This document shows, in pieces, positions 1,209 through 17,746 of a stretch of 23,076 nt of DNA (position 1 is the stretch's first letter; each line of letters starts with the position of its first letter). Position numbers and translations under genes: made by a program. The stretch lies in assembly GCA_025289735.1 (NCBI GenBank), contig GCA_025289735.1_4764.2. One strand, written 5' to 3'. Under the pieces are notes generated by a model that saw only the letters and a program-made list of their open reading frames with translations, searched no databases and was not told the origin of the DNA. The stretch is from a phage.

Positions 1209-1213
1209 AATAT

Positions 1214-1810: not shown

Positions 1811-1820
1811 GTGTCAACCC

Positions 1821-2768: not shown

Positions 2769-2770
2769 AA

Positions 2771-2956: not shown

Positions 2957-2994
2957 AATATATCATCCTCTTTTGTTTCTATCAAGCCTCATTT

Positions 2995-3002
2995 TATAAA
3001 TA
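2995..3002 (+). promoter_or_regulatory. T4-type late promoter (TATAAATA) for gene 34
   Basis: Exact TATAAATA about 28 nt upstream of the gp34 ATG, followed by AAGGAG RBS. Matches the gp55/gp33-dependent late promoter consensus. Confidence 0.65.
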
Positions 3003-3030
3003 TGAACATACTATAAAAGGAGACCCAATA

Positions 3031-6000
3031 ATGGCAGATTTTTCTCAACATTTCAAGGCCACATTTGGCTTTGACGCTGGTAATGAAAAGGTCGTCAATG
3101 TAGCATTGGCTGATAAGAATGTCAACACCGATGCGGTCAACGTTGAATTTTTCAATTACCATAATGGTATTACTCAGTATGACACAACTCGCGGTTATGA
3201 TCAATACGGCACTACAATCTATCAAAACCGTCCGTATTATGCAAAAGAAGATATCGCAAAACCAGCAGGTGACTTTGACCCGACTAAATGGCAAGCACTG
3301 CGCACGGACCCACGTTGGGATTATGTTGCAGCAACTTCCGGCGATACTCCTTTAAAGTCCGGTGACTATATCGCAGCGGACTGTCAGTTTGCAAACTTGA
3401 CATTCTCAATGCCTACTAATCCTGTAGAGGGCGACACTATAACAGTAAAAGATATCGGTGGCAAGTGCGGTGTTAATGAGTTATCGTTCCTTTCGGTTGG
3501 TCATGAGTTCTATCATAATGGTGTGGTAAACAACCGCAAATGGTACTGTACTACCCCTTATGCAATGAACTACTTCATTTTTGTTCGCAATCGCTGGCAC
3601 GTTTACCAGACGGGAACGGAGCCACGCGGGGTATATGCACAACCATCTATCGACCCGATCCAGATGCAAAACGGTGATCAGGTATTTCGTCGTAGTTCGT
3701 TGGGTAATATTACCTTAGTGCTTCCTAAGTTTGCCAACAATGGCGACATGATCCAGACTACAGACCTTGACGGATTAACCGCAACCAACCACGTTACGGT
3801 TAAAGTTCATGAGCACGCAGAAGAACAATCAATTGGCACGTCCGGTCTAAAAGAGATTATCGGTAAGCGTAGCGGTCATGGTATATTCATCTTTGACAAG
3901 ACGGAAAACTTATGGCGTTTGTGGGATGGTGATCAGTCTGTTCGTCTTAAACCGATCATCGATGACACTCGCTTATCCCCTAATAGCTATGTTGCAGTAT
4001 TTGGTGATCGTGATGTTACCTTGACTTTACCGACCAATGTCGAGTCGGGTGATCGCATTCAAGTTTCTATGCAGTATATGCACGGAAACCAGACTTGCCG
4101 AATCATTACCTCAGAAGAGGATACAAAAATCCTTATGCAGAAAAACATGGTTCAGTTTCCTAAGCGTAGCGAGTACCCATTCAATGGGACCGATACATGG
4201 ACGGGAGTGTCTGAATTGTCTTTCAACGCTGCAAATGATTATGTACCTTATCTGGAGTTCTCTTATTCAGAAGGTGATGATGGTAAGAAATACTGGCTGG
4301 TGGCACATGCTCACCCGATTGTAGAACGAGTAGATCCGACTCGTAAAGATCGTGTTGGTGTTATTGCGCTTGCTACCCAAGATGAAACAAACAAAAACCA
4401 TGAAGATAATCCTAGCGACGAAGTTGCGGTGACTCCAAAGGTTCTGGCTAACAAAACAGCCAACGAAACTCGACGCGGTATTGCTCGCATTGCAACTCAA
4501 GCGGAAACGCATCAAGATACTGGTTCCAGCTTCCTGGATGATGTTATCGTTACACCTAAAAAGTTAAATGACTGTGTTGCTACCGAAGACCGTCGTGGTG
4601 TGATGGAAATTGCAACTCAACATGAAACCAACGAAGGTTTAGACGATACTCGCGCAATCACTCCTAAGAAGTTAGAAGAGCGTCGAGCGTCAGAGGATCT
4701 TGCTGGTATCGCTGAAATTGTTCAGGTAGGCGGTAGTGCTGCCGCTCGACGTGGCGAAGCTGGTACAGGGATCTATAACATCAACGACCATGCTAAAATC
4801 GTTACTCCGCAAAACATCAACGAAGTTAAGGCGACCGAAACTTCCCGTGGTGTTGGGTATCTGGCAACTGACGCGGAAGTGCAAGGGGCTACAGAATCAA
4901 CCCCGCAAGATGCTTTACTAATCACGACTCGCACGCTAACGAAACGTACTGCTACCGAATCGCGTACTGGTATCGCTGAAATTGCAACTCAGGAAGAAAC
5001 AAACTTAGGTCAAAGTGATAACCATATCATCACGCCTAAAAAGCTGCATACTCGCCGCGCAACGGAAACTTTACATGGTTTAGCAGAAATTGCAACTCAA
5101 GAAGAGTTTGACGCAGGTCGTGACGATGCTCGCATTTCTACCCCATTGAAGATTAAAACCTTCTTTGAGAATGCACAGCGTTTGAAAGTAGACCCGACTC
5201 AGGGGCTTAACCTTACGGGTGACTTGTGGCAAGGTATCATGATCAGCGGTCTTGATGCAACCGAAGACACAAAAGGTGTCGCTAAAGTTGCTACTACTCA
5301 GCTTACGGATGTTGGTCAAGATGATACTACAATCATCACTCCTAAAAAGCTGCAAGGCAAAAAGGCCACCGAAGGTAAAGAAGGTATTATCCGAGTTGGT
5401 ACTCAAGCCGAAACCGTGGCTGGTGCACTGGCTAATGTAGCAATTTCTCCGAAGAACTTCAAATATGTTGTTCAGACAGAGGATACATGGAAAGCAACCG
5501 AAGCGCGTCGTGGTTTCTTGAAAGTTGCTACTCAGGAAAACTGTTTTGTTGGTGATAATCTGCAAGGTTCTACTCAAGAACTAGGAAACTACCAGCATGA
5601 CGGAATTGCTGTTACCCCGAAAGGATTAAACTACGCACTTGCTAATTTCTTACCTAAGATGGCAACCGCTCAGAATAGTTTGAAATTGGGTAACGTAGAG
5701 GCCGCTAAATGGGCGCGTAGAGACATTGACCAGACCATAGAGAGCAATTACACGTTTAATAAAAAAGTTAACGTGAAGGGCGATTTAGAGTGCTTAAAAT
5801 CAGGTTCCTTTGAAACTCTGTCTGTGACTAAGAACTCGACCGATGTTCCGAGTAATGGTCATCTGGTGTTGGGTGAGCGTGGAGTTGACGGTCACACCGG
5901 AATTACTCTGCATGGCACAACCGCATCGGAAGGCATGAAAAACTCTTGGTCTATTATCGTTGGTGGTACGGGAACAGCGCAAGTTGTTGATAGTGATGCT

Positions 6001-6771
6001 ATCGCTTTCGGTAAAATCAATGATGGTGGAGTCGTTGAGCATTACGCCTTTGCTATGAAACACAATGGCGACGCGACAGCATATAGAGACTTTATTGCAG
6101 GTCGTAACCTGTATGCGAAACAAGGCGGTTTATACATTGTTGACCAGTCTAATCCGGCAATGACTCGTTCCCCAGATGGTATGCTGAATATCGGTCACGG
6201 TGGAAGTGTTAACATCAAGGCAGGTCATCAAACGTTAACTACAGAGATCGCCGGACAGAAATATCAGATCGTACACGCAGGAAACGCTGACGAAGTTCTT
6301 AACCGTCAGTTTGTTAAGAATGCTGGCGATACAATGGTCGGTAAGCTGACTATGGATAATGCGCCTATTGTTTCTGTTAAGCATGAAGCTAGCGCGGCAA
6401 CCGCTCCGGCAATCAGCAACATCGGTTTCTGGAATATGCGCGTTACTACCCAGAACATCAAAGAAACTTATCCAGAGAAGAAAAACGGTACTCTGATGCA
6501 ATGGGGTACTGACGCGGACGGGCTTACCCAGCTTTGGTCCCCCGATGGTACTCATAAACATTATATCCGTTCCGGTACTGGTGGTCAATGGACCGCATGG
6601 GGTGAAATTTACACCAAACAGAATAAGCCTACCGCTCAGGAAATCGGGGCAGTAGTTGCAGAAGGTGGTTTAATGAACTCTATGACGGTTCGTGATTGGA
6701 TCAAAGTTGGTAATGTTAAAATCATCGCCAATAATCTGACTCGTACCGTAGATTTTATCTGGGAAGACTAA
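3031..6771 (+). CDS. 34: long tail fiber proximal subunit gp34
   Basis: 1246 aa (T4 gp34 is about 1289 aa). Shared motifs include VNVALAD, PKPAG.F, W.ALRTD, GD.I...DIGGK.GVN, LWRL.DGD, QFPKRSEYP, ELSFN...YVP.LEF, the repeated ITPKKL...ATE..G.AEIATQ units and C-terminal RD.I.VGNV.I. Confidence 0.9.
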   Translation: MADFSQHFKATFGFDAGNEKVVNVALADKNVNTDAVNVEFFNYHNGITQYDTTRGYDQYGTTIYQNRPYYAKEDIAKPAGDFDPTKWQALRTDPRWDYVAATSGDTPLKSGDYIAADCQFANLTFSMPTNPVEGDTITVKDIGGKCGVNELSFLSVGHEFYHNGVVNNRKWYCTTPYAMNYFIFVRNRWHVYQTGTEPRGVYAQPSIDPIQMQNGDQVFRRSSLGNITLVLPKFANNGDMIQTTDLDGLTATNHVTVKVHEHAEEQSIGTSGLKEIIGKRSGHGIFIFDKTENLWRLWDGDQSVRLKPIIDDTRLSPNSYVAVFGDRDVTLTLPTNVESGDRIQVSMQYMHGNQTCRIITSEEDTKILMQKNMVQFPKRSEYPFNGTDTWTGVSELSFNAANDYVPYLEFSYSEGDDGKKYWLVAHAHPIVERVDPTRKDRVGVIALATQDETNKNHEDNPSDEVAVTPKVLANKTANETRRGIARIATQAETHQDTGSSFLDDVIVTPKKLNDCVATEDRRGVMEIATQHETNEGLDDTRAITPKKLEERRASEDLAGIAEIVQVGGSAAARRGEAGTGIYNINDHAKIVTPQNINEVKATETSRGVGYLATDAEVQGATESTPQDALLITTRTLTKRTATESRTGIAEIATQEETNLGQSDNHIITPKKLHTRRATETLHGLAEIATQEEFDAGRDDARISTPLKIKTFFENAQRLKVDPTQGLNLTGDLWQGIMISGLDATEDTKGVAKVATTQLTDVGQDDTTIITPKKLQGKKATEGKEGIIRVGTQAETVAGALANVAISPKNFKYVVQTEDTWKATEARRGFLKVATQENCFVGDNLQGSTQELGNYQHDGIAVTPKGLNYALANFLPKMATAQNSLKLGNVEAAKWARRDIDQTIESNYTFNKKVNVKGDLECLKSGSFETLSVTKNSTDVPSNGHLVLGERGVDGHTGITLHGTTASEGMKNSWSIIVGGTGTAQVVDSDAIAFGKINDGGVVEHYAFAMKHNGDATAYRDFIAGRNLYAKQGGLYIVDQSNPAMTRSPDGMLNIGHGGSVNIKAGHQTLTTEIAGQKYQIVHAGNADEVLNRQFVKNAGDTMVGKLTMDNAPIVSVKHEASAATAPAISNIGFWNMRVTTQNIKETYPEKKNGTLMQWGTDADGLTQLWSPDGTHKHYIRSGTGGQWTAWGEIYTKQNKPTAQEIGAVVAEGGLMNSMTVRDWIKVGNVKIIANNLTRTVDFIWED
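4369..5566 (+). repeat. intragenic tandem degenerate repeats within gp34
   Basis: At least seven copies of the unit TPKKL-(x)-ATE-(x)-G-(x)-EIATQ-E are visible in the translation. Boundaries approximate. Confidence 0.7.
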
Positions 6772-6776
6772 TTAAA

Positions 6777-6792
6777 GGGGGCGAAAGCCCCC
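6777..6792 (+). other. intercistronic stem-loop (GGGGGC-GAAA-GCCCCC) between genes 34 and 35
   Basis: Perfect 6-bp GC stem with GAAA tetraloop directly after the gp34 stop; no downstream T-run, so probably an mRNA stability or processing element rather than a terminator. Confidence 0.5.
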
Positions 6793-6804
6793 TATGGGGT
6801 TATT

Positions 6805-7944
6805 ATGACACAAGAGATAGAATTACGCAACACTGGAGTTAGGTTTGCGCATTTCGACGAAGACTCTGCGACATTTACAAGCATTTCAGAAAACAACTCT
6901 GTGATGTATAAGCTGGAAGTTCGCGGATCTAATGCGGATTCTACCAAACCAGCAAGGATTAGATTTAATGGAGTGGAGATCGTTGGCACTGGCTATGAAA
7001 ATGGCCTAAATTTTAAAGTTCTTACTCCAACTGGACAACTACACGAAGAAAAGGTATTCTATGGTCGCGGTGCTGTATTGGCAATGCGTGATTATCTTTC
7101 TTTGCTGAAAGGTGACTATATCATTGCGATGGCAACGCATGGAGAATTGTTTGCAGATCCGATAAGTGATGTTGTATTTTCTAAGATGGGATCTGTATCA
7201 TTCCCGAATCACATTTTGTTACAGCAAATGCCTCGTGTATCCTATGCAGCAATTTATTCTACTAAAATGGGTAAAATTGTGTGCGAAGGGATGCAAGCAA
7301 CGCACGGGGAAGGTCAAGATTCGTCTATACAGATCGAGAAAGTTTATGATACTATAGACGATCTTGCAATAACAGGAACACCACAACGATTTTTAGATTA
7401 TCCGGTTGAATATGTTAGCGAAGATGCCGAACATTTCGAGCTAATACAATGGCCTCATGATGAGATCAGCGCACCACTTGAGGATTTTAACATAAAGTCA
7501 GGTGACAAACTATCAATATCCTTTGAATTGTTCCGTGATAGTGCCGCAGCCGCAGCCAACGTAACAGCGCGTTTCTATCACAACTACTTCACTGATGGAC
7601 AATATCAAACTGGCGTTCGTTATAATGCCAGCCAGAAAGATCAATGGGAAAAGTTTGAAACCGTCTATACCGTACCGGAAGGAGTTGATAGTGTTACCAC
7701 TGGTTGTATCAGATATCCAACCAACTCCAACGAAGGTATTGTTAAAATTAGAAACATACTAATAACGCCGATCAGTGGAGTCGTCAAAACTACTGGTCCT
7801 ACTTCATTTGGTGTTAATGGTGTTAGAACAACTCATATTCAGGATAACGGTGATTTTACTAACCCTGTAATGAGTCTTCTTAAACTGCCTAGAGATAATA
7901 AACACATCACATCCAACAACTTTAAAGAGTTCGATGTTGATTAA
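6805..7944 (+). CDS. 35: probable long tail fiber hinge protein gp35
   Basis: 379 aa (T4 gp35 about 372 aa), immediately downstream of gp34 with no separate promoter. Assignment by synteny and size; sequence similarity not confirmed from memory. Confidence 0.5.
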   Translation: MTQEIELRNTGVRFAHFDEDSATFTSISENNSVMYKLEVRGSNADSTKPARIRFNGVEIVGTGYENGLNFKVLTPTGQLHEEKVFYGRGAVLAMRDYLSLLKGDYIIAMATHGELFADPISDVVFSKMGSVSFPNHILLQQMPRVSYAAIYSTKMGKIVCEGMQATHGEGQDSSIQIEKVYDTIDDLAITGTPQRFLDYPVEYVSEDAEHFELIQWPHDEISAPLEDFNIKSGDKLSISFELFRDSAAAAANVTARFYHNYFTDGQYQTGVRYNASQKDQWEKFETVYTVPEGVDSVTTGCIRYPTNSNEGIVKIRNILITPISGVVKTTGPTSFGVNGVRTTHIQDNGDFTNPVMSLLKLPRDNKHITSNNFKEFDVD

Positions 7945-7955
7945 CATTTTTAACA

Positions 7956-7986
7956 AGCCGATCCTCGTGGTCGGCTTTATTTTTAT
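7956..7986 (+). terminator. rho-independent terminator after gene 35
   Basis: AGCCGATCCTCGTGGTCGGCT hairpin followed by TTTATTTTTAT. Confidence 0.7.
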
Positions 7987-8125
7987 ACAGTTGGTTAAAA
8001 CATAACCAAAACGAAGAAAGATCTTTAGAATAATAAAAATTTGTTTCGGTTAAAAAGTAGTCAGTGCCTACGGCACGTCGCAAAGCGACAATTGTTAATA
8101 AATATTTTCATTTGAGGAATCAGTA

Positions 8126-8716
8126 ATGTCTAATCTCTTTAACTATGCTAACCCTAGCAACTGGCAGATCAATATTCCAGATGGACAACTAACAAAAGGC
8201 TTTACTTTAAATGCTCAAGGTGTTACACTTCCTGCTATAACCATTCCACCGACTAAACAAGTTGCTGGTCAATATGGTTTGGCGGTTGCTGATTATCCGT
8301 CTAGTCATGTAGAGTTTGACCCGCTGGTAGTCCGGTTTATTGTCGATGAGCATTTGGAAAGTTATCTAAACCTTTACACATGGATGCTTTCTATAGTAGA
8401 CTACAATAACGGTAACTCCACTGCGTGGAAGGATTCAATGCCGGAAGCCGTTCAAGTTCACATGATGGACAACGAACGACGTAACATTGTGTGCACTTTT
8501 AACTTTTATGGTTGTTGGTGTTCACAATTGGGGGAACTTGAGTTAACATACACCGATGATATGCATGAATCTCTGGTGTGTACTGCAATTCTTCCCTTTA
8601 AAACAATGAGCATTGAACGTGATGGTCAACTGATCGTTCCTCGCCCAGCAATTCAGGCGGCGGATCGTCAGAGGGTGGAAGGTATTAAAGCTATGCACCC
8701 TGCTTTTAGAAAGTAA
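8126..8716 (+). CDS. hypothetical protein, probable late/structural (unassigned)
   Basis: 196 aa with GAGGA RBS. Sits between gp35 and gene 1. Not similar to T4 gp36 as I recall it. Weak resemblance to tail-tube-fold proteins (gp19-like W..GELEL segment) is uncertain. Confidence 0.55.
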   Translation: MSNLFNYANPSNWQINIPDGQLTKGFTLNAQGVTLPAITIPPTKQVAGQYGLAVADYPSSHVEFDPLVVRFIVDEHLESYLNLYTWMLSIVDYNNGNSTAWKDSMPEAVQVHMMDNERRNIVCTFNFYGCWCSQLGELELTYTDDMHESLVCTAILPFKTMSIERDGQLIVPRPAIQAADRQRVEGIKAMHPAFRK

Positions 8717-8731
8717 TAAGAGGCTTATATA

Positions 8732-9388
8732 ATGAAATTGATTGCACTTTGTGGTAAAAAGCGAGTAGGAAAAGACACTGCCGCGTTAATCATTGATGGA
8801 CATAGTTATCAACTGGCAGCACCGATCAAAGAAATATTGTGCGAATGTCAACCAGACTTAGGTCTGACTTATCTTGACTTTGACGGGTTAGGGCGTGACA
8901 GAGAATCCGATCTAGGTATTGATACCTATACCGCGCATAAGTGGTTTATTCAGTGTCTGCTTATGCTAGATTCGAAGTATGGCGGTAGTTCCTTTACTTG
9001 TGATCGTCTGGCTGAGATTTACAAGGTCGTTAATGAGATTGGCGAAAAACATAATAACGTCTGGTCTATTCGTCTCATGTTAACCACTCTCGGTACTGAT
9101 ATAATGGTTAACTTGATCAATCCGCTTTATTGGTGTAATCTCTTCGTTAATGAGTTTATGAAGCGCAAAAATGAAGAAGGTTATTTTGTAGTGGTTGATG
9201 TGCGTCAGCCTATTGAAATTGCTCTCGTGCGTGCTATGGGTGCTAAGGTGTTGCATATTCAGCGTGATACTGGTATTGTATCGACTCACTCCACCGAAAA
9301 AGGAATTTTGCCTATTGACGGTGAAACAGTTATCATAAATAATGGCACATTAGAAGAATTTGAAAGCGCGATTCTCGCGAACATTTAA
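8732..9388 (+). CDS. 1: deoxynucleoside monophosphate kinase
   Basis: 218 aa; clear similarity to T4 gp1: MKLI.L.G.KR.GKDT, YQLA.PIK, DRE.DLG, WSIR.LM..LGTD..VN, ARAMGA.V.HI.R, THSTE.G.LPI.DG..VI.N.G.LEE. Confidence 0.9.
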   Translation: MKLIALCGKKRVGKDTAALIIDGHSYQLAAPIKEILCECQPDLGLTYLDFDGLGRDRESDLGIDTYTAHKWFIQCLLMLDSKYGGSSFTCDRLAEIYKVVNEIGEKHNNVWSIRLMLTTLGTDIMVNLINPLYWCNLFVNEFMKRKNEEGYFVVVDVRQPIEIALVRAMGAKVLHIQRDTGIVSTHSTEKGILPIDGETVIINNGTLEEFESAILANI

Positions 9389-9414
9389 TAAAAAGTTATC
9401 AACAAGTAGGAGAT

Positions 9415-9681
9415 GTGAATATGTCCAATCAACATGAACAAATGATTAATGTCCTGAAAGTACGTCTGTTTGACACTCAAGAAAAGGCCGCATTCTTAGA
9501 AGGCCAACTGAAAGATCGTGAGCGTGTATTGATGGAACTGGTACGCATTCTGGGTATTCAGCCAGACGAAAACGGGACTGTTTCCCTTGATGCTATCGTC
9601 GAAGAAGTGAAAGCACTTCTCCCTAAAGACGAAGCCGCAGAAGCCGCAGAAGAGGAAGTAGAACTGATCACGGAGGCTTGA
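9415..9681 (+). CDS. 57A: gp57A-like tail fiber assembly chaperone (small acidic coiled-coil protein)
   Basis: 88 aa, acidic, heptad-like, between gene 1 and the 57B-like gene; size and neighbourhood match T4 57A. Sequence-level match not verified. Confidence 0.5.
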   Translation: MNMSNQHEQMINVLKVRLFDTQEKAAFLEGQLKDRERVLMELVRILGIQPDENGTVSLDAIVEEVKALLPKDEAAEAAEEEVELITEA

Positions 9682-9683
9682 TT

Positions 9684-10148
9684 ATGACCCCGTTTAGAGA
9701 ATCCGTTAAAGGTACATATGCGGCGGTTAAATTCACTGAGGATACACTAGACCGCATTGAAAAATTGCAGGAGTTCTACGATCTTCCTAATGCCGTTCCT
9801 CGTGATAAACTGCATAGCACTATCTTATATTCTCGTGTCTATGTTCCGTTTATCCCAGAAGAAGGGGAGAAGTTCTTAGGCTCTCTGTGTCATCTGAAAG
9901 TGTTTGAAACACAATCCGGTACTAATGCGCTTGTGCTGGCATTTGAAAGCGACTACATGCAATTCAGACACGATATCGGCACTGCTTTAGGTGCGACGTG
10001 GGATTATCCTGAATATGTACCGCATATCACGCTTTCTTATGATGTTGGTGCGCGTAAATTTGGCACTGACCTAGAGTTCGATTTAGAGATTGTCCGATCT
10101 CATGAGTATGTCGAAGATCTAGACCTGGAGTGGACGACCAAACTGTAA
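9684..10148 (+). CDS. acb1: 2H phosphoesterase, 57B/Acb1-like (anti-CBASS cyclic-oligonucleotide phosphodiesterase candidate)
   Basis: 154 aa from ATG at 9684 (the track start 9678 is TTG; GGAGG RBS 7 nt upstream of 9684). Two H-x-T-x motifs (HSTILY, HITLSY) typical of 2H phosphoesterases; T4 57B/Acb1 is about 152 aa and adjacent to 57A and gene 1. Confidence 0.65.
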   Translation: MTPFRESVKGTYAAVKFTEDTLDRIEKLQEFYDLPNAVPRDKLHSTILYSRVYVPFIPEEGEKFLGSLCHLKVFETQSGTNALVLAFESDYMQFRHDIGTALGATWDYPEYVPHITLSYDVGARKFGTDLEFDLEIVRSHEYVEDLDLEWTTKL

Positions 10149-10155
10149 TTCTATA

Positions 10156-10187
10156 CCCCGAAAAATTTTTCGGGGTTTTTTGTTTTT
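10156..10187 (+). terminator. rho-independent terminator
   Basis: CCCCGAAAAATTTTTCGGGG palindrome followed by TTTTTTGTTTTT. Confidence 0.8.
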
Positions 10188-10192
10188 AGGTG

Positions 10193-10221
10193 TTGACAAC
10201 CATAAACGACTATAGCATAAT
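10193..10221 (+). promoter_or_regulatory. early sigma70-type promoter module copy 1 (TTGACA-17-CATAAT)
   Basis: TTGACA at 10193-10198, CATAAT at 10216-10221, then leader ATCGAAACGAAACAC and AGGAG RBS before the ATG at 10260. Confidence 0.7.
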
Positions 10222-10259
10222 GCACATATCGAAACGAAACACACTTAGGAGAATCAAAA

Positions 10260-10634
10260 ATGATGATGTTTAAAGATAAATTCGAATGTCACTACACCCG
10301 TAACTTTGACTTAGTATCCCGCTACTACATTCATAAAGAAACTGGCACGCAAGTAGTTCTTGAATCTCACAGCGAAGTAGGATTCGATTCAACAAAAGTA
10401 GCAATTAGTGCTCGCTTCTGGGATAACGGCAAATTTGCTTATATCGCTTGGAACGACGACGAAAATGTAATTACAGTAGCTTTCGGTGATGACTACTACA
10501 CTAAAAAGACTTTTGATAGCAAGCCATCAAATGAATATCTGAAAGCGTATGTTCAGCACATGTTCCAACGTGTTCTGACCGGAATGGAAATCAATGTCAT
10601 GAAAGACATTGTAGACGAAGTAAAATATTCTTAA
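10260..10634 (+). CDS. hypothetical protein (124 aa)
   Basis: ORF with promoter and RBS directly upstream; no recognised homolog. Confidence 0.7.
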   Translation: MMMFKDKFECHYTRNFDLVSRYYIHKETGTQVVLESHSEVGFDSTKVAISARFWDNGKFAYIAWNDDENVITVAFGDDYYTKKTFDSKPSNEYLKAYVQHMFQRVLTGMEINVMKDIVDEVKYS

Positions 10635-10640
10635 AAATAG

Positions 10641-10669
10641 TTGACAACATGAAACGGGGGTAGTAAGAT
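10641..10669 (+). promoter_or_regulatory. early promoter module copy 2 (TTGACA-17-TAAGAT) with inverted repeat over the -10
   Basis: TTGACA 10641-10646; GGGGGTA (10656-10662) / TACCCCC (10669-10675) inverted repeat flanks the -10; leader CAAACGAAAGGAG. Near-identical to the module at 19448. Confidence 0.65.
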
Positions 10670-10700
10670 ACCCCCACAAACAAACGAAAGGAGAATCAAA

Positions 10701-10859
10701 ATGAAATTTATCGGTAAAACTTTTATGTTCGTAGCTGGTACTCTGTTTACTGCAACTCTGTTAGCTGGTGGCTTAGATATCTTTACTGCCTTTGAAACTT
10801 TCGGGTATACTGTAGCATCGGGTGCTCTCTTCGGATTGGGTTTAGCGATTAGCAAATAA
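10701..10859 (+). CDS. small hydrophobic membrane peptide (52 aa)
   Basis: ATG 7 nt after AGGAG, immediately behind promoter copy 2; translation MKFIGKTFMFVAGTLFTATLLAGGLDIFTAFETFGYTVASGALFGLGLAISK. Below the 60-aa cutoff of the ORF track. Confidence 0.6.
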   Translation: MKFIGKTFMFVAGTLFTATLLAGGLDIFTAFETFGYTVASGALFGLGLAISK

Positions 10860-10868
10860 GGTGATAAT

Positions 10869-11072
10869 ATGGAATTTGATATGGTTAAAGCAAAATTTAT
10901 GGGTAAGGATAAGAGCGGTAAAACATTTGTTATTAATAGAACATTGTTTCGCTCTGACCTTAAGTGGGTAACACAACAATTTGCGGAAGTCAACGAGGCA
11001 GTTGTGACATGCTTCGTTGATGATAAAAAAGTTTTTGAAATTGATCGTCGTGGGGTGTCTAATGATCACTAA
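10869..11072 (+). CDS. hypothetical protein (67 aa)
   Basis: ORF with GGTGA RBS; first gene of a translationally coupled chain. Confidence 0.55.
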   Translation: MEFDMVKAKFMGKDKSGKTFVINRTLFRSDLKWVTQQFAEVNEAVVTCFVDDKKVFEIDRRGVSNDH

Positions 11073-11259
11073 ACTGTTTAGTAATACTTTGTTTCTGATT
11101 GCATTTGTTTTCTTTCTGTGTCTGATGATCGGTGTTGTTACAGTTGGTAGCTATTCCGGTATTACCTTAGATGATTTTTGCAAACTTGTTTTGATCTCGT
11201 TTATACCTAGTATTCTGCTCGCTTTATGTGGTGCTTTTAAATGGCTTTGTACGCTATGA
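11062..11259 (+). CDS. small membrane protein (65 aa)
   Basis: ATG at 11062 overlaps the upstream stop; hydrophobic, two predicted TM helices. The track start 11017 is probably too far upstream. Confidence 0.55.
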   Translation: MITKLFSNTLFLIAFVFFLCLMIGVVTVGSYSGITLDDFCKLVLISFIPSILLALCGAFKWLCTL

Positions 11260-11366
11260 ACGAAATAGAACGAATGATGTTGATAGGTGGACCGGAGTTC
11301 ACTAAATTTGATGCAATTCTTATTGCGTTGGGTTTTCTTATGATCTGTTGTATGGTGGCGCTATGA
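11256..11366 (+). CDS. possible micro-protein (36 aa, hydrophobic)
   Basis: ATG at 11256 overlaps the upstream stop (ATGA); its own stop overlaps the next ATG at 11363. Manual translation MNEIERMMLIGGPEFTKFDAILIALGFLMICCMVAL. Confidence 0.35.
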   Translation: MNEIERMMLIGGPEFTKFDAILIALGFLMICCMVAL

Positions 11367-11587
11367 GTAGCATAAAATATTTTGCTTTCTTGTGTTTTAT
11401 GATGTTCTTCACATTCTTAGCATGTGTTTTCTTTACCTGGCTTGCTCATGTTGATAATGCAACCGGACCGTTTTACTTCTTCTGTGTATTGTCTGTGTTG
11501 ACTGGTGCTCTTGTTACGTGGATGATTCGAGATTGTTACGGAATGTATAAGTTTGAAAAGACTCGACCGAAATGGGGCAAACGATGA
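11363..11587 (+). CDS. small membrane protein (74 aa)
   Basis: Hydrophobic ORF, ATG at 11363 (track start 11348 is TTG). Confidence 0.55.
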   Translation: MSSIKYFAFLCFMMFFTFLACVFFTWLAHVDNATGPFYFFCVLSVLTGALVTWMIRDCYGMYKFEKTRPKWGKR

Positions 11588-11766
11588 AATTATTTGCATG
11601 GCTAATTATTTTAAATGTAATTGTTAAGACCTTTCTCGCTGGTCTGATGATGGCGCATAGCACCGAACCAGAAGAAGCATTAACGTATTTTGTTGCTTAT
11701 GTGTTGGGATTCTTGCTTACTGCGTGGATGTGTGATGAATATCGAAGAATTGAGGTAAAACCATGA
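11584..11766 (+). CDS. small membrane protein (60 aa)
   Basis: ATG at 11584 overlapping the upstream stop (ATGA); hydrophobic. Confidence 0.5.
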   Translation: MKLFAWLIILNVIVKTFLAGLMMAHSTEPEEALTYFVAYVLGFLLTAWMCDEYRRIEVKP

Positions 11767-11981
11767 AAATGACTTTTTATATCTTAGCAAGTATCATGCT
11801 TGTGATCTCTTCTGCCTTATTTGCATTTCTTACCGTTTGGGGGATCTGTACTGATGCGAAGCCGTGGGATATCGTAGAAAATACGGTTATGTTTATTATT
11901 AGTGTCATGTGTCTTTTTGATGCATTTAACTCTATCAAGGAAGAAGATCAAAAACGTCGCGAGAGAAAGCGATATAAATAA
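11763..11981 (+). CDS. small membrane protein (72 aa) with basic C-terminal tail
   Basis: Start overlaps the upstream stop; two hydrophobic segments then KEEDQKRRERKRYK. Confidence 0.55.
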   Translation: MKMTFYILASIMLVISSALFAFLTVWGICTDAKPWDIVENTVMFIISVMCLFDAFNSIKEEDQKRRERKRYK

Positions 11982-12132
11982 TAGTGAACTAAAGACAGCG
12001 CGGTTAGAATGATTTGGACGTCACCTAGCCGCATTTATTACAGCGTATGTGGGCTATCCGGTACGCTAAAGCATTCACTTGCTAGGCCGCTAGCAGGTTG
12101 GAGACAAGGAAGATTCGCTACCTTCCCTATAA

Positions 12133-12156
12133 GCCACTCTTCGGAGTGGCTTTTTT
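12133..12156 (+). terminator. rho-independent terminator (UUCG tetraloop)
   Basis: GCCACTC-TTCG-GAGTGGC followed by TTTTTT. Confidence 0.8.
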
Positions 12157-12184
12157 ATTGCCTAAAATTTTTTTAAAAAAGTTG

Positions 12185-12213
12185 TTGACACCAGATCCGG
12201 CCTATAGCATAAT
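12185..12213 (+). promoter_or_regulatory. early promoter module copy 3 (TTGACA-17-CATAAT)
   Basis: TTGACA 12185-12190, CATAAT 12208-12213, preceded by an A/T tract (12161-12180), followed by leader ATCGAAACGAAACACAC. Confidence 0.7.
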
Positions 12214-12259
12214 ACACCCATCGAAACGAAACACACTTTCTTAAACGGAGAATCAAATT

Positions 12260-12445
12260 ATGGCACGTCGCATCACTAAAGCACTGAAAGCAGTAAGCAA
12301 AGAAAACGTAGTAGCTATTCTGGTAATCTGGGGTTATAACGAAGAATCCGCTAAACAGAAAGTTGAAGCAGGGTTTGAACTGGCAGTAAAAGCAATGCCT
12401 AATGATGACTCTGTAGGACTGGCAAACTATATTGCATATTTCTGA
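12260..12445 (+). CDS. hypothetical protein (61 aa)
   Basis: ORF behind promoter copy 3 with GGAGAA RBS. Confidence 0.6.
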   Translation: MARRITKALKAVSKENVVAILVIWGYNEESAKQKVEAGFELAVKAMPNDDSVGLANYIAYF

Positions 12446-12453
12446 TAAAAGTG

Positions 12454-12482
12454 TTGACAGGGGAGGATAACTCCCCTACAAT
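12454..12482 (+). promoter_or_regulatory. early promoter module copy 4 (TTGACA-17-TACAAT) with spacer palindrome
   Basis: TTGACA 12454-12459, TACAAT 12477-12482; GGGGAG/CTCCCC inverted repeat (12460-12476) in the spacer; leader ATCAACGAAACGGGAGG. Confidence 0.65.
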
Positions 12483-12511
12483 ACAACCATCAACGAAACG
12501 GGAGGACCAAA

Positions 12512-12733
12512 ATGATTAACTTTAAAGACGCAGCAAAAGAAATTATCGACTTTGAGCGTGAACTGTTTGAGATGGAACCAAATATGAGTAAACTGGAATT
12601 GGCTAACCAGATCTGGTGCTCTAAGATGAATCCATCCGACCGCTTAGAAGTTATGAACATCGTAGGCGAAGTGAAAGGTAGTGCATTAATGAAACTCCGC
12701 GCTTGTCACGCTTACATCGCTGATCAACTATAA
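12512..12733 (+). CDS. hypothetical protein (73 aa)
   Basis: ORF behind promoter copy 4. Confidence 0.6.
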   Translation: MINFKDAAKEIIDFERELFEMEPNMSKLELANQIWCSKMNPSDRLEVMNIVGEVKGSALMKLRACHAYIADQL

Positions 12734-12742
12734 GGGGGTAAT

Positions 12743-12937
12743 ATGGGGGATAAACCATTAGTACAACTAAGAGTACGCTATAACCAGATTTTAGCATTAC
12801 TTAAAGCTGAGGGTGTAGACCCATCGGACCGCGAGGCTGTAAAAGCGTGTCTATCTGATACGGTACAACCAAAACATAACTATGCTTGTTATATGTACTT
12901 TTACAATAGGATGAATAGACCGTTTGAGTTTGAATAA
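12743..12937 (+). CDS. hypothetical protein (64 aa)
   Basis: ORF with AAGGGGG RBS. Confidence 0.55.
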   Translation: MGDKPLVQLRVRYNQILALLKAEGVDPSDREAVKACLSDTVQPKHNYACYMYFYNRMNRPFEFE

Positions 12938-12959
12938 CGTTAAGTGTTGAGGTGATACT

Positions 12960-13148
12960 ATGGAAGACCAAATTGAACAATTACGCGAATCCGCTAAAGA
13001 GCATGGTATGAGCGAAGGATTTGTTGAATGGTTTATCTCTAAAAAGGTTGATTCCTGCGGGTGCTTTAACTTCCTTACTATGTCCATTATGTGGGAAGGT
13101 TGGAAAGGTGCTGTAGAAACTGCCTTAAAAATTTTGAAAAAAGACTAA
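12960..13148 (+). CDS. hypothetical protein (62 aa)
   Basis: ORF with GAGGTGA RBS. Confidence 0.5.
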   Translation: MEDQIEQLRESAKEHGMSEGFVEWFISKKVDSCGCFNFLTMSIMWEGWKGAVETALKILKKD

Positions 13149-13156
13149 AAAAGTTG

Positions 13157-13185
13157 TTGACACGCGATAGGGTGTATAGCATAAT
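13157..13185 (+). promoter_or_regulatory. early promoter module copy 5 (TTGACA-17-CATAAT) inside an 11-bp perfect inverted repeat
   Basis: TTGACA 13157-13162, CATAAT 13180-13185; GATAGGGTGTA (13166-13176) and TACACCCTATC (13186-13196) form a perfect inverted repeat around the -10; leader CGAAACGAAACACGAA and AAGGAG RBS. Confidence 0.7.
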
Positions 13186-13228
13186 ACACCCTATCGAAAC
13201 GAAACACGAACTACTAAGGAGTATCAAA

Positions 13229-13555
13229 ATGAAACCAGTATCTGTTAAAGTTATCTTCTCTGAATCTTCTGTATTCGCTAAAGCAAACGAAGTATTCCAC
13301 TTCGAAGACTTCGAGCGTAAAGCACAGGACGCGGCAGCAAAAGCCTATGAAAGCGAATATGACAAAACTCAAATCGAGGTTACTTTCGAAAACGGCACTA
13401 CTTACGCTTGCCGCCTTGACCTGGGTGATCGTCTGTCTGGCTTCCGTCACCATGTAGAGAAGACAATCGCTTTCTCTAAAACCGAAAAAGGAAAACACTA
13501 CTTTTCTGTTTTCGGTACTAAAAATCTGGATTTCTTGAAAACTGTTTCTTTCTAA
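13229..13555 (+). CDS. hypothetical protein (108 aa)
   Basis: ATG at 13229 sits 8 nt after AAGGAG, behind promoter copy 5. The track entry 13091..13555 has an over-extended N-terminus that would cross the promoter. Confidence 0.65.
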   Translation: MKPVSVKVIFSESSVFAKANEVFHFEDFERKAQDAAAKAYESEYDKTQIEVTFENGTTYACRLDLGDRLSGFRHHVEKTIAFSKTEKGKHYFSVFGTKNLDFLKTVSF

Positions 13556-13563
13556 GGTATATT

Positions 13564-13746
13564 ATGAAAAAGATTAATTGGTTAGCGAACATAGGCGCGG
13601 TCTGCGCCTTTAACATCCTCGGATGGATAATGTTACATTTTGATGAGCGAGTTTCAAAATGTGAGGGTGCATTGATTCTCGGATCTGCTAGCATATTCAT
13701 TATGCTGTATGCAATTGCTGTTGACTTAAGCCGCGAGGATTGTTAA
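13564..13746 (+). CDS. small membrane protein (60 aa)
   Basis: Two hydrophobic segments. Confidence 0.5.
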   Translation: MKKINWLANIGAVCAFNILGWIMLHFDERVSKCEGALILGSASIFIMLYAIAVDLSREDC

Positions 13747-13747
13747 T

Positions 13748-13942
13748 ATGAATATTACTAATACTGCCATCGGATTTTCGAGCGCCTTTGCTAGTTTCTT
13801 TGCGCTGGTCTGTATGTTTGTTTTTATTCCTGTTGTATATCTTGGATATTGTGATATTGAAATTGCATTGATTGCTGGGATCTATATGTGGGTTGCGGTC
13901 TTTGTTCTTTCTGTTATAATGTGCAAGATTATTGACCATTGA
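13748..13942 (+). CDS. small membrane protein (64 aa)
   Basis: Strongly hydrophobic, two predicted TM helices. Confidence 0.5.
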   Translation: MNITNTAIGFSSAFASFFALVCMFVFIPVVYLGYCDIEIALIAGIYMWVAVFVLSVIMCKIIDH

Positions 13943-13964
13943 TTAACTATGTGAGGATTATATT

Positions 13965-14285
13965 ATGAGCAAACTGTTTGAAACTCCGCGTGAAATTCTG
14001 ATTGACAAGCTGAAAGAACGTGGTTTTAAAATCAAAGATGCAACCAAATATAGTCGAATTGATGAAATTAAGTTGCATTCTCTTGATGAACTGGTAGAAT
14101 ATGTTGCGGCGGTGGCTGATCCGCAGTTTGATGTGATTGTAGGTGACGTTGAATATCTCGATAATGTATATTCATTCTTCACTTATGGTAAAATTGTGTC
14201 TGTGAAAATATCATTCTGTGAAAATGTGGAGGTGCTTGCTAGTGAACCAGAAAAACCAACTGACAACGGTCCTACGGCAGCGTAA
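13965..14285 (+). CDS. hypothetical protein (106 aa)
   Basis: ORF with GAGGA RBS. Confidence 0.55.
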   Translation: MSKLFETPREILIDKLKERGFKIKDATKYSRIDEIKLHSLDELVEYVAAVADPQFDVIVGDVEYLDNVYSFFTYGKIVSVKISFCENVEVLASEPEKPTDNGPTAA

Positions 14286-14556
14286 CAAGGAAGACCGTCT
14301 GATTTATGCGCTGGCGGTTATCCTTGAAAAAGAATTACCGGATCTTGATGTAGTTTTTACTGACCGACCAGTAGGCCAACGTTACGGAGGATATGACAGC
14401 CTAGTTTATCCATCATATAGCATTGAAATGTGGGTAGAAGATTTTAAAAACTTGGCTGATACATCTAAACCGCTTTATTTGTGGGATGTTGAGTATAATT
14501 GCGATCCTAACTGGCCTGGCATTAATGTTTATGCGTCTATGACTTTAAAGGTGTGA
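14224..14556 (+). CDS. hypothetical protein (about 105-110 aa)
   Basis: Overlaps the end of the preceding ORF in another frame. Start uncertain: ATG 14224 or GTG 14242 (GGAGG RBS at 14229-14233). Confidence 0.5.
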   Translation: MWRCLLVNQKNQLTTVLRQRNKEDRLIYALAVILEKELPDLDVVFTDRPVGQRYGGYDSLVYPSYSIEMWVEDFKNLADTSKPLYLWDVEYNCDPNWPGINVYASMTLKV

Positions 14557-14558
14557 TA

Positions 14559-14717
14559 ATGGTTGAACAAATGTTAACTTCAATGGTAATGGCTTTCTGT
14601 GTGGGTGTTGTTCTGTTTGCGATGATTCCAAAAGACCGAATGAATCTGCTTGTTGCTGTGTGTTTGGGTGTGGTTAGCGGTTGGTGTGGAATCGTTCTAG
14701 AACACGCTCTGCGATGA
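14559..14717 (+). CDS. small membrane peptide (52 aa)
   Basis: ATG at 14559 just after the upstream stop; manual translation MVEQMLTSMVMAFCVGVVLFAMIPKDRMNLLVAVCLGVVSGWCGIVLEHALR. Confidence 0.45.
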   Translation: MVEQMLTSMVMAFCVGVVLFAMIPKDRMNLLVAVCLGVVSGWCGIVLEHALR

Positions 14718-14725
14718 TTAACAAT

Positions 14726-14750
14726 GCGGGTAGGGTAATGTACTACCCGC
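14726..14750 (+). other. stable stem-loop (GCGGGTAG / CTACCCGC), no T-run
   Basis: 8-bp perfect stem with 9-nt loop between the small ORFs and the membrane-protein/endolysin cluster. Confidence 0.5.
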
Positions 14751-14778
14751 ACTAAATTAGCTCACTGGAGGGCTTTCT

Positions 14779-14967
14779 ATGGCGTTTTGTCTATGGTTGC
14801 TTATAGTATGCTTTGTAATTGGTTTATGCTTCTATACTGGCGTATTCTGTTTTGTCGCCTGGATAGACGGCGGATTCTCTAATATCATTTTGCTTGCAGG
14901 ATCAATTGCCTCGTTTCTGTTTATTTGGCTATTTTCATATTTGATTGGTGAATGGGATTTATTATGA
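14779..14967 (+). CDS. small membrane protein (62 aa)
   Basis: GGAGGG RBS; two hydrophobic helices. Confidence 0.55.
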   Translation: MAFCLWLLIVCFVIGLCFYTGVFCFVAWIDGGFSNIILLAGSIASFLFIWLFSYLIGEWDLL

Positions 14968-15143
14968 ACAAATATATGTTTTGGGCGACCATTGCCTATG
15001 TTGTGATTGCGGTAGTATGGGGATTCTGTGTTATTGTCGCTTCTCTGATCTGGTGGGAATCACTTGGTGCGGGTTGTCTGATTAGCGGCGCATCATGTCT
15101 TATCACTGGCGTGATTGTTGGTTTTCTTGTGTCGGAGGCTTGA
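14964..15143 (+). CDS. small membrane protein (59 aa)
   Basis: ATG 14964 overlaps the upstream stop; hydrophobic. Confidence 0.5.
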   Translation: MNKYMFWATIAYVVIAVVWGFCVIVASLIWWESLGAGCLISGASCLITGVIVGFLVSEA

Positions 15144-15145
15144 CA

Positions 15146-15361
15146 ATGGTTTTCTTCGGTCTTATTATAATGGTGCTTAATGTCATTTGTGGCGTTGCTA
15201 TGTTAGCTATGGCCTTTACTGTTCCTATGTCTGTTGATAGCGCCGCATCCGTAGGTGTGTTGGGAATTGTAAACCTGTTTACCGCCCTAGCATGTTGGAT
15301 CACCGGACGCGATGAGGTAATGTATTACTTTTATAAACGTAAACAGAGAAAAGGAAAATAA
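15146..15361 (+). CDS. small membrane protein (71 aa) with basic C-terminus
   Basis: ATG 15146 with GGAGG RBS at 15134-15138; two TM segments then KRKQRKGK. Confidence 0.5.
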   Translation: MVFFGLIIMVLNVICGVAMLAMAFTVPMSVDSAASVGVLGIVNLFTALACWITGRDEVMYYFYKRKQRKGK

Positions 15362-15362
15362 T

Positions 15363-15554
15363 ATGAAATTTGCATTTGGTTTTACCGTGATGTTGATTAT
15401 TGCTCTGAGTATGTGTACCGGAATGCTTGTATTTGGTCTTGCAAACGGATTTAGCATTTATAATAATCAGTGGGTTGATTGGGGAATGGTTGTCGTTAAT
15501 GCGATCCTGATTGGTGCTAATACAAGAAATCTATGCAGGATCGCCGGAATCTAA
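15363..15554 (+). CDS. small membrane protein (63 aa)
   Basis: Hydrophobic ORF directly upstream of the endolysin gene. Confidence 0.5.
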   Translation: MKFAFGFTVMLIIALSMCTGMLVFGLANGFSIYNNQWVDWGMVVVNAILIGANTRNLCRIAGI

Positions 15555-15582
15555 ATATTATCACTCACAAAGGGGGTGAATA

Positions 15583-15972
15583 ATGTTTAAATTATCTCAA
15601 AGAAGCAAAGATCGGCTTGTTGGTGTACATCCTGATCTGGTAAAAGTCGTTCATCGTGCGTTAGAACTGACTCCGGTCGATTTTGGTATTACGGAAGGTG
15701 TGCGTAGTCTAGAAACGCAAAAGAAATATGTTGCGGAAGGTAAATCTAAGACTATGAAATCTCGTCATCTTCACGGTTTCGCGGTTGACGTTGTAGCGTA
15801 TCCGAAAGATAAGGATACATGGAACATGAAATACTACCGCATGATCGCGGATGCATTTAAACAAGCTGGTCGAGAATTGGGTGTTCCTGTTATCTGCGGT
15901 GTTGATTGGGTTACTTTTAAAGACGGACCGCATATGGAACTCGATAAAAAGGTATATCCAGACCCGGTATAA
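15583..15972 (+). CDS. endolysin, L-alanyl-D-glutamate peptidase (peptidase M15, T5-type)
   Basis: 129 aa; similar to T5 endolysin as recalled (VHPDL.KVV.RALELTPVDFGI.EGVR; SRHLHGFAVDV with H-x6-D zinc site; DGPHMEL). Occupies the position of T4 gene e but belongs to a different enzyme family. Confidence 0.8.
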   Translation: MFKLSQRSKDRLVGVHPDLVKVVHRALELTPVDFGITEGVRSLETQKKYVAEGKSKTMKSRHLHGFAVDVVAYPKDKDTWNMKYYRMIADAFKQAGRELGVPVICGVDWVTFKDGPHMELDKKVYPDPV

Positions 15973-15981
15973 CTAAAATCA

Positions 15982-16006
15982 AGCCAGCTTAATCGCTGGC
16001 TTTGTG
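15982..16006 (+). terminator. probable terminator hairpin after the endolysin gene
   Basis: AGCCAGC-TTAAT-CGCTGGCT followed by TTGTG; weak T-run. Confidence 0.45.
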
Positions 16007-16017
16007 AGGATTATAAA

Positions 16018-16593
16018 ATGGCTTTTAAATATTGGGATGAATCCCTACAAAACGAGATAAAACTTAGATATGCTCATATAGAGGGTATCTTATATTATAG
16101 AGTCGATAGTAAAGCTATCAAAGGACGACCATTAGGGAGTAGATATAAACACGGCGATTTAGTTAAAGTCAGAACAAATAAAGATGGTCATCTTAGATTT
16201 TGGCATAGTAGAGATGACGGTCTTCCTAGAGTTCATCTATTCGTGCATAGGGTTGTTTGGTTTCTAGAACATGGGACGCAAGTTAGATTAATTGATCATA
16301 TTGACGGTAATCCTGCGAATAACAATCCTCCAAATCTTAGGGAGGCAACCGACGCGCAAAATCAACATAATAGAAAGAAGAAGTCTAAAAAGTTTTCTAG
16401 TGTGTATAAGGGTGTTAGTAAGTCTAACAGGAAGGATTTGCGTAAGAAATGGAGAGCTAGTATAATGGTCAACCTAAAAAGACATGTTCTTGGACAATAT
16501 GACACAGAAATCGAAGCTGCAATCGCTTATGATAATGCAGCTAGGAAATTTTATGGAGAATATGCTCTATTGAATTTCCCAGATCCAAAATAA
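16018..16593 (+). CDS. HNH homing endonuclease with C-terminal AP2 DNA-binding domain
   Basis: HNH core HRVVWFLEHGTQVRLIDHIDGNPANNNPPNLREATDAQNQHN; AP2-like YKGVS...WRASI...GQYDTEIEAAIAYDNAARKFYG. AGA/AGG/ATA-rich codon usage contrasts with neighbouring genes. Confidence 0.8.
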   Translation: MAFKYWDESLQNEIKLRYAHIEGILYYRVDSKAIKGRPLGSRYKHGDLVKVRTNKDGHLRFWHSRDDGLPRVHLFVHRVVWFLEHGTQVRLIDHIDGNPANNNPPNLREATDAQNQHNRKKKSKKFSSVYKGVSKSNRKDLRKKWRASIMVNLKRHVLGQYDTEIEAAIAYDNAARKFYGEYALLNFPDPK

Positions 16594-16655
16594 AATATTA
16601 ACCATCAACGGGGAGACAATCTAAGGATCTCTCCCCGTTCACTGGAGACTTTACC

Positions 16656-17147
16656 ATGAATATTGACATTGATTTAGAATTAGAAAGTAAAGATTTGATT
16701 TATGCTGCGTGTGTATCTGCCGTAAATGGCATCATAGAACGCCGTAAGCGACGCAATTTTGCTGATGACCTAGATTCCATTGTCTCAATCAATTTAGGCC
16801 GTCAGACAGGGCATACAGACGCTACAATCAAGTTATATGACCATTATACGCGAAAGGGCTATAGTGTCTTTATCGTTTCAACGACGCGGGAACATGCCAA
16901 AACGATCCGAGATCGCGGTCGCGGTGAAAATGTAAATATTTCAAATGTAGATTGTACGTCTATCCGAACTTTCCTGAATCCGATCACATGGCGAGGTCGT
17001 AGTCTTGACAAAACAATTTTTATCCTAGATACTACCATGCGCGGATTTACTGACAGCGTATTGCAGTTTTTAGAAGTAAATCGACTTAGTGTTGGGATGG
17101 GTAATGTAGAAGACCAACCTATTTTCATTGGCTTAGGTATTAACTAA
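16656..17147 (+). CDS. hypothetical protein (163 aa)
   Basis: ORF with GGAG RBS; no recognised homolog. Confidence 0.6.
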   Translation: MNIDIDLELESKDLIYAACVSAVNGIIERRKRRNFADDLDSIVSINLGRQTGHTDATIKLYDHYTRKGYSVFIVSTTREHAKTIRDRGRGENVNISNVDCTSIRTFLNPITWRGRSLDKTIFILDTTMRGFTDSVLQFLEVNRLSVGMGNVEDQPIFIGLGIN

Positions 17148-17272: not shown

Positions 17273-17282
17273 GAGGTGAATT

Positions 17283-17699: not shown

Positions 17700-17705
17700 A
17701 TTTTT

Positions 17706-17738: not shown

Positions 17739-17746
17739 GAGGTGAT

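Follow-up and report, generated by a model that had tools for sequence, protein, structure and literature searches.

The presence of two short H-x-T motifs in a phage reading frame raises the question of whether the frame encodes a counter-defence enzyme of the Acb1 family and, if so, which immune signals the enzyme would be expected to destroy. The frame considered here lies at positions 9684..10148 (+ strand) of a 23,076-nucleotide stretch of DNA (GenBank assembly GCA_025289735.1, contig GCA_025289735.1_4764.2), which as a whole is referred to below as the window; the phage from which it comes is a Krischvirus, that is, an RB49/JSE-like phage of E. coli. An initial annotation of the locus described the product as a 57B/Acb1-like 2H phosphoesterase, likely to be an anti-CBASS/anti-Pycsar nuclease. 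Two HxT motifs taken alone are weak evidence for such an identification, and it is the matches extending over the whole protein which place the identification far beyond chance. Judged by these matches, the frame is very probably the Krischvirus orthologue of T4 Acb1 (gp57B), a 2H phosphoesterase of about 17 kDa which would act by blunting CBASS.

The acb1 reading frame and its family

The gene, referred to here as acb1 (the orthologue of gene 57B), begins with an ATG at 9684 and ends with a TAA at 10146-10148, which gives a product of 154 amino acids at exactly the position proposed in the initial annotation, and a GGAGG ribosome-binding site (Shine-Dalgarno sequence) can be read directly from the sequence at 9672..9676 (+), 7 nt 5' of the start codon. 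The ATG lies 2 nt beyond the TGA (9679-9681) of a gp57A-like frame at 9421..9681 (+), and the identification of this upstream gene, which had also been proposed in advance, is borne out by Pfam GP57 (27.7 bits, cut-off 27), by PHROG 1002 (“tail fiber chaperone”, E=5.4e-26) and by the annotation of phage JSE, all of which indicate a gp57A-like tail-fibre chaperone. The other frames in the ORF listing that overlap acb1, in different frames or on the opposite strand, are short, with lengths of 31-41 aa only.

The protein encoded by acb1 scores 174.4 bits (cut-off 27; E=1.5e-51) on the Pfam model PF23474 (Anti-CBASS protein Acb1), and the match runs from end to end, with residues 9-152 falling on profile positions 1-143 of 144. 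The family represented by this model lies within the 2H phosphoesterase superfamily (LigT/2_5_RNA_ligase2), and its members have a 2H fold bearing a pair of HxT/S motifs, which is also found in the window protein. When PDB sequences were searched with phmmer, the sole real match was Acb1 of Erwinia phage FBB1 (7T26, apo; 7T27, with 3'3'-cGAMP), which was matched by residues 10-153 with E=1.8e-43 and to which the window protein aligns with 54% identity along the entire chain that was crystallised. The T4 protein 57B/Acb1 is 47-48% identical across its full length (tblastn 46.8%, E=2e-36). Taken together with the Pfam result, these matches sustain the original description of the product as a 57B/Acb1-like 2H phosphoesterase. 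None of the NCBIfam models matched the acb1 ORF. A single-sequence AlphaFold2 model of the window protein, which had a mean pLDDT of 37.5, was unusable and was discarded, so the fold assignment rests on homology to 7T26: a 2H phosphoesterase fold is implied by the 54% full-length identity to that solved structure.

A tblastn search of 50,697 phage records found a homologue in 1,476 of them, nearly all of full length, and the hosts of the phages that carry a homologue belong to Escherichia, Klebsiella, Shigella, Acinetobacter, Aeromonas, Enterobacter, Vibrio and Yersinia. At the DNA level acb1 has 95-99% identity to 59 records of Krischvirus (RB49/JSE-like) coliphages, and proteins which are 100% identical to the window protein have already been deposited in GenBank, for example from phages Skers and vB_Eco_SAP. 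The family is likewise already known, since a Pfam model, crystal structures, mutagenesis and phage genetics have been published for it, and the window gene is an ordinary member.

Two of the homologues found in other phages depart from this ordinary form. The Acb1 homologue of the Slopekvirus vB_KpnM_05F, a Klebsiella phage, is a protein of 207 aa (1459-2082 of the compared locus) with a C-terminal extension of about 55 aa and a Lys in place of the Trp of the C-terminal lid, and the Acb1 match in Pseudomonas phage psageK9 (query residues 38-123, 38% identity, E=5e-8, tblastn) sits within a 600-aa protein (52-1854 of the compared locus) that adjoins the terminase. It is possible that these two proteins represent variant architectures of the Acb1 family.

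Catalytic and substrate-binding residues

The mechanism of Acb1 is defined by the FBB1 structures in combination with mutants of the T4 enzyme. Hobbs et al. (2022, PMC9117128) describe an enzyme of 2H fold, in the U-shaped pocket of which Y12, W74, F107 and W147 of T4 Acb1 stack the bases of the substrate, E141 contacts the adenine N6, and the tetrad H44/T46/H113/T115 catalyses the reaction by a metal-independent acid-base mechanism with a cyclic phosphate as intermediate. Residues 145-152 of the T4 enzyme form a lid which is needed for activity (PMC9117128; 10.1101/2025.08.21.671373). The numbering used in PMC9117128 fits a T4 protein of 152 aa, which begins one codon earlier than the annotated 151-aa ORF of X03016.

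The conservation of these residues was evaluated using pairwise alignments together with an alignment of eight homologues from phages of six host genera (coliphages and phages of Erwinia, Acinetobacter, Aeromonas, Vibrio and Klebsiella). The two motifs named in the initial annotation are found at codons 44-47 (HSTI, nt 9813-9824) and at codons 114-117 (HITL, nt 10023-10034). The first catalytic motif, H44-S45-T46 (9813..9821, +), aligns with H44/T46 of T4 Acb1 and with H44/T46 of FBB1 Acb1, and its His and Thr are invariant among the eight homologues; the second, H114-I115-T116 (10023..10031, +), aligns with H113/T115 of T4 and is also invariant across the eight. The spacing from histidine to histidine is 70 residues in the window protein, 69 in T4 Acb1 and 70 in FBB1 Acb1. 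Both catalytic histidines are therefore retained in the HxT positions of the T4 and FBB1 enzymes, as had been anticipated, and the displacement from the 2H catalytic positions which the initial annotation had named as the observation that would count against it does not appear in the alignments with T4, with FBB1 or among the eight homologues.

The residues which hold the substrate follow the same pattern. The Y12 codon (9717..9719, +) corresponds to the base-stacking Y12 of T4 Acb1, and the E144 codon (10113..10115, +) to T4 E141, the residue that reads the adenine N6; both positions are invariant among the eight homologues. In the alignments F74 (9903..9905, +) and Y108 (10005..10007, +) are the aromatic counterparts of W74 and F107 in T4. 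The C-terminal lid, residues 148-154 with the sequence LEWTTKL (10125..10145, +), aligns with the T4 lid 145-152 in such a way that W150 is the counterpart of T4 W147, and the alignment of this region continues to the C-terminus (LDLEWTTKL in the window protein, LKLDWADDLK in T4). All nine of the published functional residues of T4 Acb1 are conserved or conservatively replaced in the window protein. The positions that are invariant across the eight homologues are G10, Y12, K42, H44, T46, Y49, S50, R51, T76, G79, R95, G103, D107, Y111, P113, H114, T116, Y119, E141, E144 and L146.

The likeness to FBB1 Acb1 extends to the numbering, because the two proteins have H44/T46 and H114/T116 at the same positions, and they also have in common F74, Y108, the adenine-reading Glu and a C-terminal lid containing Trp. 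They differ by a 2-residue insertion in the loop that precedes the final strand (DLEFDLEI compared to -EYKVPV) and in the host genus of the phage, which for FBB1 is Erwinia. There is also a difference in length from T4 Acb1 (154 aa compared to 152 aa).

Assuming that the window protein works as its T4 and FBB1 homologues do, its U-shaped beta-sheet pocket would take up a cyclic di- or trinucleotide of a CBASS system, the bases of which would be stacked by Y12, F74, Y108 and W150 and the adenine N6 of which would be read by E144, and the C-terminal lid (residues ~148-154) would shut over the ligand. The tetrad H44/T46/H114/T116 would then carry out metal-independent acid-base catalysis, in which the 2'-OH of a strained adenosine would attack the 3'-5' phosphodiester to give a 2',3'-cyclic phosphate, and the hydrolysis of this intermediate would yield a linear product with a 3'-phosphate. 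The expected substrates are the adenosine-containing products of CBASS CD-NTases, namely 3'3'-cGAMP, cUA, cAAA and cAAG, and the destruction of these signals would keep the CBASS effectors off, so that abortive infection would be averted.

The published activity of the family gives this expectation its content. In Hobbs et al. (2022, PMC9117128), T4 Acb1 and nine further homologues are all reported to cleave 3'3'-cGAMP and cAAA, and Acb1 is described as not cleaving cGG, cA4 or 3'2'-cGAMP; deletion of acb1 from T4 reduces plating on CBASS hosts by more than 300-fold and leaves the phage otherwise normal, and Acb1 activity is present from about 15 min in T4 infection. The RB49-like phage vB_EcoM_G2494, the Acb1 of which differs from the window protein at one residue, was included in the lysate screen described in that paper. 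T4 Acb1 also cuts 2'3'-c-di-AMP and, when overexpressed, can trigger the Panoptes guard system (10.1101/2025.08.21.671373). A literature search found no paper linking Krischvirus with CBASS, and a search on Acb1 and anti-CBASS found none with RB49 in the main text. Because the lid and the residues that bind the substrate are kept, the retention of anti-CBASS activity is the best inference for the window protein, and it is by analogy with the characterised members that we infer its enzymatic activity, its substrate range and its protective effect in vivo.

The exact specificity could differ from that of the characterised enzymes, because identity to them is 47-54% and related 2H phosphodiesterases vary: the selectivity and the products of the group-3 2H PDEs differ from one enzyme to another and are set by the enzyme core (preprint 10.1101/2025.08.21.671373). 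A substrate range that is shifted compared to that of T4, such that the Panoptes decoy 2'3'-c-di-AMP is poorly cleaved or spared, for example, or such that 2'-5'-linked signals are gained, would be in keeping with an identity to T4 Acb1 of only 47% and with the two stacking positions that are unlike those of T4 (F74 for W74, Y108 for F107). Both of these substitutions are, however, also found in FBB1 Acb1, which was crystallised with 3'3'-cGAMP bound, and the nine further homologues tested in PMC9117128 cleaved cGAMP and cAAA without exception (9/9); in addition, the sequence of the window protein contains no sign of an altered pocket. A shift of this kind is unlikely; if it were real, the Krischvirus enzyme would be functionally distinct from that of T4, and in RB49-like phages the evasion of immunity would be weighed differently against its triggering.

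Alternative activities and selection on acb1

Some of the labels attached to the protein point away from immune signals altogether. PHROG 755 is labelled “RNA ligase”, several records name the orthologue RNA ligase or RNA 2',3'-cyclic phosphodiesterase, and the protein has weak superfamily-level similarity to two LigT-type profiles, PF13563 (2_5_RNA_ligase2; 19.4 bits, E=0.0011) and PF02834 (LigT_PEase; 14.1 bits, E=0.057), both matches being confined to the region around the second HxT motif. On this evidence the product could be taken for a 2H phosphoesterase of generic type that acts on RNA ends, that is, a LigT-like 2'-5' RNA ligase or 2',3'-cyclic phosphodiesterase with a role in RNA repair or tRNA metabolism. 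Both LigT-type scores, however, fall below their curated cut-offs (27 for PF13563 and 23.3 for PF02834), whereas the Acb1 model reaches 174 bits, so that the protein is to be placed in the Acb1 family and not among the LigT-type RNA ligases or cyclic phosphodiesterases. The residues that hold a cyclic dinucleotide are also kept (four aromatics, the adenine-reading Glu and the lid Trp), the “RNA ligase” labels are either older than the 2022 characterisation or have been propagated automatically, and T4 with acb1 deleted is reported (PMC9117128) to grow normally when CBASS is not present. A LigT-type RNA ligase was accordingly rejected as a candidate, since the family-specific evidence for Acb1 outweighs similarity at the level of the superfamily, and an enzyme of RNA ends is a very unlikely reading of the gene.

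The second half of the anti-CBASS/anti-Pycsar proposal in the initial annotation fares differently from the first. The anti-CBASS part agrees with the evidence given above, but the anti-Pycsar part finds no support in the sequence or in the published assays, in which Acb1 has no action on Pycsar signalling. A dual nuclease, which would hydrolyse cCMP and cUMP in addition to CBASS messengers, has nothing to commend it except that T4 Acb1 is, in general, promiscuous in its action on oligonucleotide messengers (10.1101/2025.08.21.671373). In Hobbs et al. (2022, PMC9117128), Acb1 and Apyc1 are each described as specific, for CBASS or for Pycsar signalling, the degradation of cCMP and cUMP is assigned to Apyc1, which is stated to be without structural or mechanistic homology to Acb1, and the Acb1 pocket is described as fitting cyclic di- and trinucleotides only. 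Apyc1 (e.g. PDB 7T28) is like Acb1 in that it is a phage enzyme, described in the same paper, which degrades cyclic nucleotide immune signals; it is unlike the window protein in that it has an MBL fold with an HxHxDH motif and two Zn, is dimeric, and acts on cyclic mononucleotides. A Pfam search with the window protein gave no MBL/Lactamase_B match at E<=1, and no HxHxDH motif occurs among the five histidines of the protein (44, 70, 96, 114 and 140). Anti-Pycsar activity was rejected on these grounds and because Apyc1 is the counter-enzyme for Pycsar, and a dual nuclease must be considered highly improbable.

The Acb1 reading also requires that the gene be functional at present. Among the variable codons of six Krischvirus copies of acb1, 17 have synonymous changes only and a single one changes an amino acid (D129N), and on the strength of this ratio the gene is under clear purifying selection. 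The possibility that acb1 is a relic which has decayed or lost its activity, and which now serves no function, is negligible and is excluded by the conservation pattern, since the ORF is intact, its RBS is good, none of the catalytic and binding residues is missing, synonymous-only codons predominate, and the gene occurs in all 59 of the 59 phage records that carry the gene block in which it lies.

The gene block, its surroundings and what acb1 means for RB49-like phages

The block begins with gene 3 (8126..8716, +), which encodes the tail completion protein or sheath stabiliser (PHROG 45, Pfam gp19-like, JSE annotation), and continues with gene 1 (8732..9388, +), which encodes the dNMP kinase (Pfam DNMK, E=9.1e-68), followed by the gp57A-like gene and acb1. 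The four genes are co-oriented with very short gaps, and the block is closed by a feature resembling an intrinsic terminator at 10155..10186 (+), which was found in a terminator scan and consists of a hairpin (10155-10176) with a 9-bp stem containing 5 GC pairs, followed by a T-run; a terminator is annotated at the equivalent site in phage G2494. It is probable that acb1 is co-transcribed with genes 3, 1 and 57A and that the transcript ends at this terminator. The order gp3-gp1-57A-57B is kept in all of the straboviruses examined (T4, JSE, G2494, Minot, AsFcp_4, K571 and 05F), so that the synteny covers T4 together with straboviruses of Acinetobacter, Aeromonas, Vibrio and Klebsiella. T4 Acb1 (gp57B, NP_049750.1) is the positional orthologue of the window protein: it has the same place in the order, with a start that abuts or overlaps the stop of 57A, and the T4 layout is mirrored in the window down to a terminator and an early-type promoter directly 3' of 57B. 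The exact T4 late promoter sequence, TATAAATA, has two occurrences in the window, at 2995 and at 11973, a number that does not exceed chance, and neither of them lies upstream of the block; a version with one mismatch, AATAAATA, at 8097-8104, 21 nt before the ATG of gene 3, could be a candidate late promoter, which is only a guess. Rfam and tRNA scans of the window gave no matches.

The promoter that follows the terminator is a near-consensus sigma-70 promoter (TTGACA-17-CATAAT, 10193-10221), and it precedes an ORF of 124 aa (10260-10634, +) which belongs to phrog_15253 (function unknown; E=1.8e-87). It is at this point that the window departs from T4, in which the downstream neighbour is ipI; the 124-aa protein at the ipI position is unrelated. 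The 124-aa ORF has a sub-threshold Pfam match to T4 Gp30.7 and no NCBIfam match, and a search of PDB sequences gave only chance-level matches to MHC. With its own strong promoter, this ORF can be considered a candidate early or anti-defence gene, as yet uncharacterised.

The left part of the window has a different arrangement from that of most related genomes. Positions 7991-23076 are collinear with JSE, RB49 and their relatives, and positions 1-8098, which contain gp33, a dsbA-like gene, rnh, gp34 and gp35, have their match elsewhere in these genomes, inverted and at a distance of about 77 kb. At the junction (7945-8125) gp35, the long tail fibre connector gene (6805-7944), is joined directly to gene 3 (8126-8716), and the two matches overlap over a sequence of 108 bp (7991-8098) of which phage Delraymugoa has two copies, one downstream of gp35 and the other upstream of gp3, in inverted orientation. 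Of the 59 Krischvirus records, 58 have the gp35 and gp3 halves in opposite orientation with about 77 kb between them, each half having one copy of the 108-bp repeat at its border, and the junction seen in the window is common to one record only, that of Krischvirus LF73P4 (OZ035795.1). The junction is due either to recombination between the repeats, which would have produced a large inversion, or to a flip in the assembly, and it is without effect on the acb1 gene.

Several other genes in the window invite comparison with T4. A glycine-radical domain is found by Pfam (E=4.7e-15) in the Vs.6 orthologue (17283-17699, +), which in this respect is similar to the autonomous glycyl-radical cofactor proteins of the YfiD/GrcA type, which are small “spare part” proteins. 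The Tk.4 orthologue (21330-21785, +) has a Macro domain, which binds or hydrolyses ADP-ribose (Pfam, E=1.3e-06), and is annotated in JSE as a phosphatase with an A1pp motif; it may be of relevance to host defences that use ADP-ribose. An ORF resembling a homing endonuclease, with HNH_3 and AP2 domains according to Pfam, lies at 16018-16593 (+), and a second homing endonuclease is annotated in JSE at a position collinear with 17747-18277 (+); both sites coincide with gaps in the collinearity with LF73P4 (15933-16578 and 17752-18278). Between nrdC.11 and regB (19011-19843, +), three small ORFs of 64, 86 and 111 aa occupy the site of vs.3, vs.4 and vs.5 in T4.

The last of these sites is relevant to the role of Acb1, as T4 Vs.4 is the Acb2 sponge; T4 ipI, for its part, is an anti-restriction gene. 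A tblastn search with T4 Acb2 (Vs.4) and IpI found nothing credible within the window (best E=2.6), the three small ORFs have no Pfam match, and Pfam gave no Acb2-like domain in the small ORFs between vs.6 and regB. Given that no Acb2 (Vs.4) homologue is detectable at the syntenic site in the window, Acb1 could be the main anti-CBASS tool of the RB49-like lineage.

The assignment of acb1 opens no route to an open question, because the family, its structure, its mechanism and its phenotype have all been published, and beyond better annotation it has little consequence. Most GenBank records call the orthologue a “hypothetical protein” or “RNA ligase”, and the evidence supports renaming it as the anti-CBASS nuclease Acb1. 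For the use of RB49-like coliphages in phage therapy, and for the analysis of their host range, the presence of acb1 predicts resistance to CBASS systems of the cGAMP, cUA and cAAA/cAAG types, and it also predicts a possible sensitivity to guard systems of the Panoptes type, which sense the loss of 2'3'-c-di-AMP.
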